DNA from: Escherichia phage Turkey3
Sequence record: PQ471515.1
Length of the DNA stretch: 64,000 nucleotides
Strand: one strand, 5' to 3'
A program made the position numbers and the translations under genes. The notes under the pieces were generated by a model. It made no database searches. It worked only from the letters and a program-made list of their open reading frames with translations, and was not told the origin of the DNA. This document shows positions 35-1,709 of this stretch, piece by piece. Within the stretch, counting starts at the first letter, position 1, and each line of letters opens with the position of its first letter.

Positions 35-478
35 TTGGAAGTAAAAGCTGGTTTTGCAGGTCAGTACAATGATAAAATCAAAGAAGAAGTTAAGGGAAGT
101 GAAGATGCTTTCATTGAGGTTTGTGCAACAGTTGGTTCAAATCCAATTTCAGTATCACCTTTAATGCGAAATGAAAATTCAGAATTTGATTCCAGTTTTG
201 AAGGTTATTTGTGGTATAATTATGGTGATGATTATTTTATATATCAGAATTCCAAAACGGATTACAGTGAAGAAGGTATAAAATTCATTGATCCTTACAA
301 TGAAGCAGAAGTATTTCAGACATCCCTAATATACAATACAAATCAAATGAAGTATCTTATGTTGTTTAGTACAATGCATTTGAATCCATTGAAAGATAAT
401 TTAAAATTTTTCATTCGTTTAGAATTAGTTGATATTGCTTATGATCTTTTAATGCAAGGATATAGTTATGAAGTATAA
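35..478 (+). CDS. FQ-S array paralog (hypothetical protein)
   Basis: 147-aa ORF; motif NEAEVFQTSLIYN; C-terminus LMQGYSYEV identical to next gene. Confidence 0.6.
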   Translation: MEVKAGFAGQYNDKIKEEVKGSEDAFIEVCATVGSNPISVSPLMRNENSEFDSSFEGYLWYNYGDDYFIYQNSKTDYSEEGIKFIDPYNEAEVFQTSLIYNTNQMKYLMLFSTMHLNPLKDNLKFFIRLELVDIAYDLLMQGYSYEV

Positions 479-495
479 AATGCTGTATACAAAAG
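451..495 (+). repeat. gene-junction repeat copy 1 (AATGCAAGGATATAGTTATGAAGTATAAAATGCT...)
   Basis: near-identical sequence recurs at 1035-1078 and 1379-1409, spanning stop/start junctions of adjacent paralogs. Confidence 0.7.
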
Positions 496-554
496 ATATG
501 ATTTATGTTGAATTAGAAGTCAATGACGATGTATCCATCAATAGGTAATAATAT

Positions 555-1061
555 ATGAATGAGATAGAATTATTAGCACACAAGATTAGTACAGTAATGC
601 TTATGCTCAAGAATAATCATTCTATGCATAAGTACATTTTTATAGGTGATTTACGCATAGAAGATAGATATGATAAATTATCGTTTATGTTTAAAGATGA
701 AAGTAATGCAAAAGTTTGTTTTGCAGCATTTACCCAAGGCAATCCAGAACAAGCATCTCCTGTTATATACGAAAATAGTGAAGGGTATTTGTGGGTCAAC
801 ACAAACGATTATTTCTTTTATGTTTTGAAACAAGATGATGAAGTAGAAGCACGAATTGATTTAATTGATATTAGTTCAGATTGTAGTGCTGAATTATTTC
901 AGAAATCGTTATTATACAGTCCTCGTCAAATACATTATCTAAAGTTATTCAGTTCATTGTACGCGAATCCTTTAATTAAGGGTTTTAAATTTTATATCAA
1001 AATTCCGCACCTTTCAAACGTTTATGATATGTTAATGCAAGGATATAGTTATGAAGTATAA
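555..1061 (+). CDS. FQ-S array paralog
   Basis: 168-aa ORF; motif SAELFQKSLLYS; same C-terminal LMQGYSYEV as 35-478. Confidence 0.6.
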   Translation: MNEIELLAHKISTVMLMLKNNHSMHKYIFIGDLRIEDRYDKLSFMFKDESNAKVCFAAFTQGNPEQASPVIYENSEGYLWVNTNDYFFYVLKQDDEVEARIDLIDISSDCSAELFQKSLLYSPRQIHYLKLFSSLYANPLIKGFKFYIKIPHLSNVYDMLMQGYSYEV

Positions 1062-1078
1062 AATGCTTTATACATTAA
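1035..1078 (+). repeat. gene-junction repeat copy 2
   Basis: matches 451-495 and 1379-1409. Confidence 0.7.
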
Positions 1079-1362
1079 CATTAATATATGTAGAATTAGA
1101 ATCCGATTCAGATGCATGGAATTTGGTTAAAGAGGTCGATACCAATCAATGGTACATGGCAAATTTAGACGCACAGGTTGTTACGGATTATTTTATAGAT
1201 TTTAATACATTATCTGAAGAAGAATTTTTCCAAATGCAATTGGTGGTTGACATGTACGGACATGACATGGTAACATTAAGAAATATACAGAAAGTAGTTA
1301 ATGAATTCCAAAGCAAGAAAGATTATGAGGTAGGAGCGTATTATGACATCGACGTACAGTGA
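1051..1362 (+). CDS. FQ-S array paralog (short form)
   Basis: 103 aa; MKYKMLYTL...SEEEFFQMQLVV; tandem duplicate of 1359-1709. Confidence 0.6.
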   Translation: MKYKMLYTLTLIYVELESDSDAWNLVKEVDTNQWYMANLDAQVVTDYFIDFNTLSEEEFFQMQLVVDMYGHDMVTLRNIQKVVNEFQSKKDYEVGAYYDIDVQ

Positions 1363-1709
1363 AAGCAATGAGTACAATAGTTATGAAGTATAAAATGCTT
1401 TATACATTATCAGGGATATATGTAGAATTAGAACCCGATTATCCAGATGGATGGAATTTTATTAAACGCTCCGAAAGAAATACATGGCACATGGCACATT
1501 TGGATAATGACGTAATATTAGACAATTTTGTGGATTTTAATACATTATCAGAAGAAGAATTCTTCCAAATGCAATGTGTGCTTGACACAAAAGGATTTGA
1601 TGTGCTATTATTAAAGAATATACAAAAAGCTGTTAACGAATTAATATCCAATGACGAGTTAGGCAAAGTGAGGCTGTTCCATGATCTCGAAGTACCGTAC
1701 CAGCAATGA
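1359..1709 (+). CDS. FQ-S array paralog (short form)
   Basis: 116 aa; ...MKYKMLYTL...SEEEFFQMQCVL; tandem duplicate of 1051-1362. Confidence 0.6.
   Translation: MKAMSTIVMKYKMLYTLSGIYVELEPDYPDGWNFIKRSERNTWHMAHLDNDVILDNFVDFNTLSEEEFFQMQCVLDTKGFDVLLLKNIQKAVNELISNDELGKVRLFHDLEVPYQQ
1379..1409 (+). repeat. gene-junction repeat copy 3
   Basis: AGTTATGAAGTATAAAATGCTTTATACATTA matches copies 1 and 2. Confidence 0.7.

Follow-up and report, generated by a model that had tools for sequence, protein, structure and literature searches.

Near the start of a 64,000-nucleotide (nt) stretch of the genome of Escherichia phage Turkey3 (PQ471515.1; this whole stretch is hereafter called the window and is numbered from its first letter), a short repeat lies at three successive boundaries between small genes of two families, which we call A (∼170 to 190 amino acids, phrog_19795) and B (∼103 to 108 amino acids, phrog_33987). 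We consider it likely that this repeat is a conserved overlap between an A gene and the B gene that follows it, that it was copied by two tandem duplications with illegitimate joints, and that it has since served as a patch of homology for recombination. By its sequence the genome is placed in Asteriusvirus, among the Escherichia coli jumbo phages resembling 121Q and PBECO4. The first 6 kb were 96 to 99% identical to Escherichia phages EC.P1, WPEC5, fEgEco12, CMSTMSU, WPEC3, and vB_Ec-M-J and ∼80% identical to 121Q and PBECO4, all of which are Asteriusvirus jumbo phages of ∼350 to 385 kb.

Anatomy and conservation of the A/B junction

A 30-nt core, ATAGTTATGAAGTATAAAATGCTKTATACA, occurred without mismatch on the plus strand at 462 to 491, 1045 to 1074, and 1377 to 1406, with no fourth copy in the 64 kb. 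It was not found in any of 100 dinucleotide-preserving shuffles, and the number of occurrences expected by chance was 0. A preliminary description of this DNA had reported a repeat at three successive boundaries, and its coordinates proved right to 1 to 4 nt. Copies 1 and 2 have an extension, AATGCAAGG, that begins at 451 and 1034, respectively, and that copy 3 does not have; they also have the upstream sequence TTAATGCAAGG in common. Similarity continued past the short motifs: copies 1 and 2 are 80% identical over 96 nt (439 to 534 versus 1022 to 1117), including a tract of 36/36 identical positions that starts at 449 in copy 1 (449 to 484), and copies 2 and 3, identical at 33/33 positions, continue as paralogous genes that can be aligned along their length (∼77% nucleotide and 56% amino acid identity). 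Rather than standing alone at gene junctions, the repeat is the best-conserved part of a module of two genes, A and B. The repeat copies, the junction downstream of them, and the genes that they connect are as follows.

439 to 534, plus strand: repeat copy 1 in its extended form, comprising the A1 C terminus, the overlap of stop and start codons, and ∼21 codons from the 5' end of a B gene
1022 to 1117, plus strand: repeat copy 2, comprising the A2 C terminus, the Shine-Dalgarno (SD) sequence AAGGA (1039 to 1043), the B2 ATG (1051), the A2 stop codon TAA (1059 to 1061), and B2 codons 1 to 22
1377 to 1409, plus strand: repeat copy 3, 33 nt identical to 1045 to 1077, without the upstream AATGCAAGG and hence without a canonical SD sequence
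2198 to 2250, plus strand: older paralogous junction A3/B', where A3, ending in VYECLMEVLSYEAE and a stop codon, overlaps the B' ATG (2237) by 14 nt
1 to 478, plus strand: 3' part of gene A1 (phrog_19795, PHROG match with E = 4.5e-50), which starts 82 nt before the window and ends in VDIAYDLLMQGYSYEV and a stop codon
555 to 1061, plus strand: gene A2, 168 amino acids, 40% amino acid identity to A1
1051 to 1362, plus strand: gene B2, 103 amino acids, phrog_33987, AlphaFold2 model with a predicted local distance difference test score (pLDDT) of 91
1383 to 1709, plus strand: gene B3, 108 amino acids, 56% amino acid identity to B2 and 77% to 121Q gp350
1681 to 2250, plus strand: gene A3, 189 amino acids, phrog_19795, first ∼40 nt coduplicated with B

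The motif is coding in two frames. In the A frame it reads ...Y-D-x-L-M-Q-G-Y-S-Y-E-V-stop, corresponding to the last ∼13 codons of A (VYDxLMQGYSYEV), and in the B frame, shifted by one base, M-K-Y-K-M-L-Y-T..., which covers ∼8 codons from the B start. The ATG of B precedes the A stop codon by 8 nt, resulting in an 11-nt stop/start overlap, ATGAAGTATAA; the ATG/stop pairs are located at 468 and 476 to 478, at 1051 and 1059 to 1061, and at 1383 and 1391 to 1393, the last of them formed with an A stub. The SD sequence of B, AAGGA, is situated inside A at positions -12 to -8 with a 7-nt spacer, both in copies 1 and 2 and in 17/17 unique full junctions, and is missing from copy 3, which has just GAG at -13 to -11. 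This is the layout of a classical translationally coupled gene pair, with the coupling itself being putative. The B genes had previously been regarded as flanked by repeats, but every repeat itself forms the 5' end of a B gene, with no copy after the second B gene. The start of the latter, given before as GTG at 1359, has to be moved to the conserved ATG at 1383, from which MKYKM... begins in all orthologues.

In sliding identity profiles of A1-B2 of phage Ecwhy_1 versus A-B of phage G17 (64% identity overall) and of A2-B2 of the window versus the same G17 genes (59% overall), the highest peak was the junction. The longest exact run was the same 34 nt, TTAATGCAAGGATATAGTTATGAAGTATAAAATG, in both comparisons, with the next longest runs being 22 nt and 17 nt; according to our own estimate, the chance of a 34-nt run is 0.64^34 ≈ 3e-7 per position. 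Megablast detected the junction in 32 phage records, all of them Asteriusvirus (28 Escherichia and 4 Salmonella phages), at 1 to 3 places each. A 17-nt core was present with ≤2 substitutions in 21/21 relatives' loci examined, and CAAGGA, AGTT, and ATGAAGTATAAAAT were invariant across the 17 unique full junctions. Since the junction was equally invariant in genomes with a single copy (121Q, PBECO4, G17, CRJP21, UE-S1, and A4), gene conversion within a genome does not seem to be the main reason for its conservation. Moreover, the downstream A3/B' junction was 73% identical to copy 1, was 95 to 100% conserved versus 121Q, and formed a conservation peak, too. Because this module has the same design, A-B modules appear to be an old feature of the gene array in which they lie.

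The first ∼70 nt of A2 (554 to 625) were ∼90% identical to the start of 121Q gp349, with the gene bodies at 45% amino acid identity. The A2 cassette that the window has in common with phages TH47 and slurp01 begins at the 5' end of A2, and the 5' end of A genes is a second, weaker conservation island and likely an exchange point as well. A scan of IMG/VR with a 19-mer from the motif returned 121Q itself and two chance matches, but no additional natural variants. The two matches, exact over 19 nt, lie in unrelated uncultivated viral contigs (at 8503 to 8521 and 2989 to 3007) without A/B homologues; for an AT-rich 19-mer in a very large collection, they were put down to chance.

Duplication joints and exchange between phages

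Two remnants of genes and one duplicated upstream sequence accompany the repeats.

468 to 548, plus strand: B stub, a 26-codon open reading frame (ORF), MKYKMLYTKDMIYVELEVNDDVSINR followed by a stop codon; 5' end of a PBECO4-type B gene, cut at the joint at ∼531/532, with its stop 7 nt before the A2 ATG
532 to 554, plus strand: duplicated copy of the A-upstream sequence, TATCCATCAATAGGTAATAATAT; left end of duplication unit 1, matching the G17 A-upstream sequence TATCCATCGATAGGTAA
1343 to 1393, plus strand: A stub, a 16-codon mini-ORF, MTSTYSESNEYNSYEV followed by a stop codon; A3-type N terminus fused at ∼1376/1377 to the last 4 codons and the stop of an A gene

Judged from these sequences, the three copies of the repeat are the result of two tandem duplications with illegitimate joints, with the motif carried inside the duplicated units. 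Both novel joints show microhomology of at most 1 to 3 nt, and both fall outside the motif or at its edge, which argues that the motif copies were passengers and not the cause. Unequal recombination between the motifs, to which the preliminary description had attributed the array, is thus not supported, given the positions of the joints (∼531/532 and ∼1376/1377) and the B and A stubs that remain.

No full B gene follows copy 1. Instead, a PBECO4/G17-type B allele continues to ...GACGATG and then changes abruptly to TATCCATCAATAGGTAATAATAT-ATG. Joint 1 (GACGATG/TATCCATC at ∼531/532) fuses B codon ∼21 to the 20 nt preceding an A start, and duplication unit 1 extends from ∼-20 of A to ∼+63 of B (∼583 bp). 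The B stub and joint 1, with a frameshift and a 6-nt slip, were also found in TH47, ECO103, and slurp01, and the gene architecture of BF17 and ELP-22 is the same as in these three phages; duplication 1 would therefore be a single event older than these lineages. At least the TH47-type B stub seems to be decaying, since it is frameshifted. In the A stub, the first 12 codons resemble the A3 N terminus, MISKYRTSNEIQYT, and the last 4 are an A C terminus; it has kept an AGGAG SD sequence 7 nt upstream, and its stop lies 8 nt after the B3 ATG. Joint 2 (GTACA/ATAGTT at ∼1376/1377) fuses the first ∼12 A3 codons to position -6 of the B start. Because duplication unit 2 (∼332 bp, to ∼+40 of A3) begins at -6 of the B ATG, copy 3 is devoid of the AATGCAAGG half. 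The B3 ATG itself has no good SD sequence, and translation of the stub ORFs may help to deliver ribosomes to the start codon that follows.

The paralogues have diverged considerably (40% amino acid identity for A1/A2 and 56% for B2/B3). From these values the duplications would be either old or would have arisen in recombination between already diverged phages, and the genes B2 and B3, previously described as direct duplicates, are not recent ones. In phage A4, an A2-like allele (80%) is the sole A gene, which fits an origin by recombination between diverged phages.

Further downstream, a second junction-spanning repeat was observed (7077 to 7161 versus 7606 to 7690; 85 nt, 94% identical, 529 nt apart). 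The ORF at 7079 to 7240 (53 amino acids, MEFDFVISVHSF...) is a 5' fragment of the 118-amino-acid paralogue at 7608 to 7964, and the arrangement suggests a tandem duplication that left a stub, as at 468 to 548.

Relatives contain 1, 2, or 3 copies of the motif and display at least six architectures, in which primes denote the downstream B' gene.

A-B-A3: 121Q, PBECO4, G17, CRJP21, and SD-15_S21
A-B-B' (without A3): ph0011 and UE-S1
A2-like-B-B': A4
A-stub-A2-B-A3: TH47, ECO103, slurp01, BF17, and ELP-22
A1-B2-stub-B3-A3: Ecwhy_1
A1-stub-A2-B2-stub-B3-A3: the window, EC.P1, WPEC5, fEgEco12, CMSTMSU, WPEC3, and vB_Ec-M-J

Identities measured on either side of the B ATG, at distances of 30 to 150 nt, changed sharply and exactly at the junction in many pairs.

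121Q versus G17: left 0.98; right 0.33 ungapped (∼0.62 gapped), returning to ∼99% at the A3 start
TH47 or slurp01 copy 2 versus window copy 2: left 0.99; right 0.42; A2 cassette in common, B allele different
ph0011 versus window copy 1: left 0.98; right 0.44
121Q versus window copy 3: left 0.29; right 0.91
Ecwhy_1: left as window copy 1 (1.00); right as window copy 2 (1.00)
PBECO4: left as slurp01 copy 1 (0.99); right as slurp01 copy 2 (1.00)

Given the return to ∼99% identity at the A3 start, the swapped cassette in 121Q and G17 is the whole B gene. The A2 cassette is 95 to 99% identical in TH47, slurp01, and BF17, where its flanks differ. Ecwhy_1 equals the window minus exactly 583 bp between copies 1 and 2, and its crossover can be placed only within the identical tract at 449 to 491. 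The lone diagnostic site, G/T at 485/1068, also varies among relatives. In the same repeat-bounded manner, PBECO4 equals slurp01 minus 578 bp; apart from these length differences, the genomes of each pair are nearly identical. These differences, along with relatives carrying 1, 2, and 3 copies, bear out the earlier suggestion that the repeats are substrates for copy-number change. Across the compared genomes, the junction thus presents itself as a recurrent recombination switch-point for deletions or insertions and for cassette replacements.

In the record of CMSTMSU (MH494197.1, flagged UNVERIFIED_ORG), A1, A2, B3, and A3 are split into several frames between 1400 and 3750, and few coding sequences (CDS) are annotated. 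This fragmentation suggests sequencing errors in the form of indels and a record unfit for fine comparisons.

Proposed history of the junction and its alternatives

We propose that the junction is constrained in three ways at once: it is read in two frames, it contains the ribosome-binding site, and it would couple B to A by termination-reinitiation. Jointly, these constraints would keep its nucleotides invariant even as the gene bodies drift apart to 40 to 59% amino acid identity. Two tandem duplications with illegitimate joints would then have copied the junction, leaving the B stub and the A stub, and one or both may have occurred during recombination between diverged co-infecting phages. 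Homologous recombination, whether between co-infecting phages or between copies during replication, would resolve preferentially in the junction tract because diverged alleles and paralogues have no longer identical tract in common, and it would provide the only adequate homology. The outcome would be loss of the unit between two copies and swaps of A or B cassettes between phage lineages. The junction is best described as a conserved overlap of two genes, probably translationally coupled, that also serves as a patch of homology.

Several points weigh against this proposal. The divergence of A1/A2 and B2/B3 exceeds that of simple in-genome duplicates and forces the additional assumption of an old event or an inter-lineage origin. 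Copy 3 is identical to copy 2 at 33/33 positions in spite of having lost the SD sequence and the context coding for the A C terminus, with the rest of the unit at ∼77%; because of these losses, constraint alone may not explain the identity of copy 3, and conversion between copies may play a part. Coupling between A and B translation is putative. The relatives are not independent, so the count of junctions that are invariant in all of them overstates the evidence. Ecwhy_1 is an UNVERIFIED short-read record, and an assembler could in principle skip a 45-nt repeat loop. Finally, the 1-copy state of PBECO4, G17, and 121Q could reflect ancestral absence instead of deletion.

A different source of the identity between copies would be ongoing gene conversion within genomes (concerted evolution), and not functional constraint, as the process that mainly keeps the three copies alike. 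It would account for 33/33 identical positions of copies 2 and 3 in a unit of ∼77% identity and for 36/36 of copies 1 and 2 between genes with 40% amino acid identity, and phages with ≥96% identity to the window at this locus display every one of the four combinations of the G/T site at 485/1068. The single-copy genomes listed above, however, have no conversion partner, and their junctions are just as invariant; we therefore regard conversion as the main cause as unlikely. Recurrent mutation or ordinary crossovers during co-infection can produce a four-gamete pattern equally well, and the G/T site was rejected as proof of ectopic gene conversion. It is also quite improbable that the motifs pre-existed at gene boundaries and that unequal homologous recombination between them built the tandem array. 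The repeats are direct, 332 to 583 bp apart, and demonstrably recombinogenic, and the older junction of the same design at 2198 to 2250 means that boundary homology has been available in the array. Nevertheless, such a process predicts clean A-B-A-B units without novel joints, whereas we found a B gene cut at codon ∼21 with a fusion to A-upstream sequence as well as an A3 N terminus fused 6 nt ahead of a B ATG, and copy 3 has no left motif half, as expected for a duplication boundary inside the motif.

The indels and replacements bounded by the motif resemble the effect of promoter-early stem-loop cassettes (PeSLs) (PMC2839356 and PMC4122927), and its AT-rich sequence includes TATAAAAT, which resembles the T4 late-promoter core TATAAATA. 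A mobile regulatory cassette (promoter and/or terminator, PeSL-like) or a structured RNA element is nonetheless extremely improbable, as the motif is wholly within coding sequence in two frames and is found at one locus only, 1 to 3 times per genome, and not dispersed. A sigma-70 consensus scan of 1 to 6000 returned 49 sites (39.7 ± 6.9 expected), a background level, with no high-scoring site centered on the motif, and a terminator scan of the same region gave no terminator-like site at any motif copy. Folding of the three copies and the G17 orthologue (z = 0.63, -2.65, -0.04, and -0.19, respectively) revealed no common structure; only copy 2 folded better than shuffles, via a hairpin that needs the polymorphic T. 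Rfam yielded zero matches at E ≤ 1 over 300 to 1800. Assembly or polishing artefacts might be suspected behind the copy-number differences and G/T swaps, which would leave the motif as merely a conserved boundary without a role in recombination: Ecwhy_1, TH47, and CMSTMSU are flagged UNVERIFIED, CMSTMSU shows frameshift-like fragmentation, and short repeats can confuse assemblers. But each copy number (1, 2, or 3) is found in several genomes that were sequenced independently, and the cassette swaps (121Q/G17, TH47/EC.P1, and ph0011/Ecwhy_1) span long diverged sequence that no assembler can invent, which renders artefacts a very improbable explanation.

A more far-reaching idea, which we consider a long shot, is that the invariance of the junction is also selected because it acts as a coding "linker" for combinatorial reassortment of A and B alleles between co-infecting jumbo phages. 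A and B would then belong to a fast-evolving superfamily of early genes with at least 35 paralogues, possibly engaged in host takeover or counter-defence, and the junction would be a coding analogue of PeSLs. In a still more extreme version, a phage nuclease might target the junction and thereby promote exchange, or a +1 shift at GTA-TAA-A might generate an A-B fusion protein. The conserved overlap that was duplicated and then used as a homology patch, which we favor, is an ordinary new example of known processes and reveals no new mechanism. The locus is a clean nucleotide-level example of the growth and shuffling of jumbo-phage gene arrays, in which a tract that stays identical (overlapping stop/start codons with an embedded ribosome-binding site) becomes a preferred crossover point between lineages. 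Annotators should expect stub ORFs and 1 to 3 copies at this locus, which short-read assemblies may mis-resolve.

The surrounding gene array and comparison with known systems

The locus belongs to a large array near the left end of the genome, composed of small paralogous genes. Position 1 of the window corresponds to position 4001 of the EC.P1 sequence compared, where the A1 CDS is annotated at 3918 to 4478; in fEgEco12, the locus lies at 30.5 kb, ∼10 kb within the 20,993-bp left terminal repeat (PMC13070987). Positions 1 to 26300 (plus strand) of the window form a dense array of at least 35 small ORFs, all on the same strand, in which neighboring genes all overlap or abut. For the related phage CBB, stretches of short hypothetical ORFs have been predicted to contain early genes for host takeover under RpoD-like promoters (PMC5259590), and by this analogy the A/B array genes are probably expressed early. 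A hairpin at 3042 to 3063, GCCTGTATCGTAAGATATGGGC followed by a T-run at the end of the gene at 2557 to 3054, is the sole intrinsic-terminator-like structure in the first 6 kb. The annotations of G17 and UE-S1 have a terminator at the equivalent place, and the hairpin suggests an operon boundary after the A-B-A3-B'-A4 block.

A and B have a short motif in common, (D/E)xxE-L/F-F-Q-x-S-L (hhalign probability 61.6%, E = 7.8e-5, 23 columns). An iterative hidden Markov model search grouped both with ≥35 ORFs from the first ∼26 kb, although the database was small and drift is possible. The superfamily motif in this ∼26-kb array, (S/D)EE-x-(F/Y)FQ-x-S-(L/T/V), was also apparent in the DNA as a 36-nt repeat with 9 copies. 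Searches of Pfam, PADLOC, and PDB sequences with A and B gave no credible matches, PHROGs only families of unknown function, and the array superfamily was equally without a Pfam, PADLOC, or PDB-sequence match; its structural relatives were all uncharacterized proteins of Rak2-like jumbo phages. Structure prediction was poor for A2 (pLDDT 58.6). In the 64-kb window, a transfer RNA (tRNA) scan found zero tRNA genes and Rfam zero families at gathering score; tRNA clusters are located elsewhere in jumbo-phage genomes of this group, with 33 tRNAs in CBB (PMC5259590). Our literature search found no description of this locus.

Translationally coupled overlapping genes are known from polycistronic operons of phages and bacteria, with overlaps of the ATGA or TAATG type and longer ones. 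The A/B junction resembles them in having the downstream SD sequence within the upstream gene and the downstream ATG 8 nt before the upstream stop. It differs from the common coupled pairs with 1- or 4-nt overlaps in its overlap of 11 nt, and its coupling is predicted from sequence.

Conserved boundary ("linker") sequences are said to figure in the modular theory and in studies of lambdoid mosaics by Susskind and Botstein in 1978, Juhala et al. in 2000, and Clark et al. in 2001. The likeness consists in switch-points at gene boundaries, with short conserved sequence between diverged modules. Joints in lambdoid mosaics are mostly thought to stem from illegitimate recombination followed by selection, not from linkers; here, unlike in those mosaics, the conserved tract is explained by the overlapping stop and start codons plus the ribosome-binding site. 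Tandem duplications that form at illegitimate joints and later expand or contract by homologous recombination between copies likewise recall gene accordions, reportedly exemplified by the T4 duplications of Wu and Black and the poxvirus K3L "gene accordion" of Elde et al. in 2012. In contrast to these, the locus bears no sign of recent amplification or dosage selection, and its copies are old and diverged (40 to 56% amino acid identity), with only the boundary being identical.

The PeSLs of T4-type phages lie between genes and pair a sigma-70-like promoter with a terminator hairpin, and many copies of them are scattered over hyperplastic regions (Arbiol et al. 2010, PMC2839356; Comeau et al. 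2014, PMC4122927). The A/B junction differs from them in that it is coding in two frames (11-nt overlap), is without promoter or terminator signal by consensus scan and folding, and occurs three times within 1 kb and nowhere else in the 64 kb, and at 1 to 3 places per genome in the 32 records. In both cases, short conserved boundary sequences lie amid many small nonessential ORFs and offer homologous exchange points between diverged sequences, giving rise to insertions, deletions, and replacements in close relatives. Indels and replacements bounded by the element, as known from PeSLs, were found at the A/B junction in Ecwhy_1 versus the window, PBECO4 versus slurp01, and 121Q versus G17.

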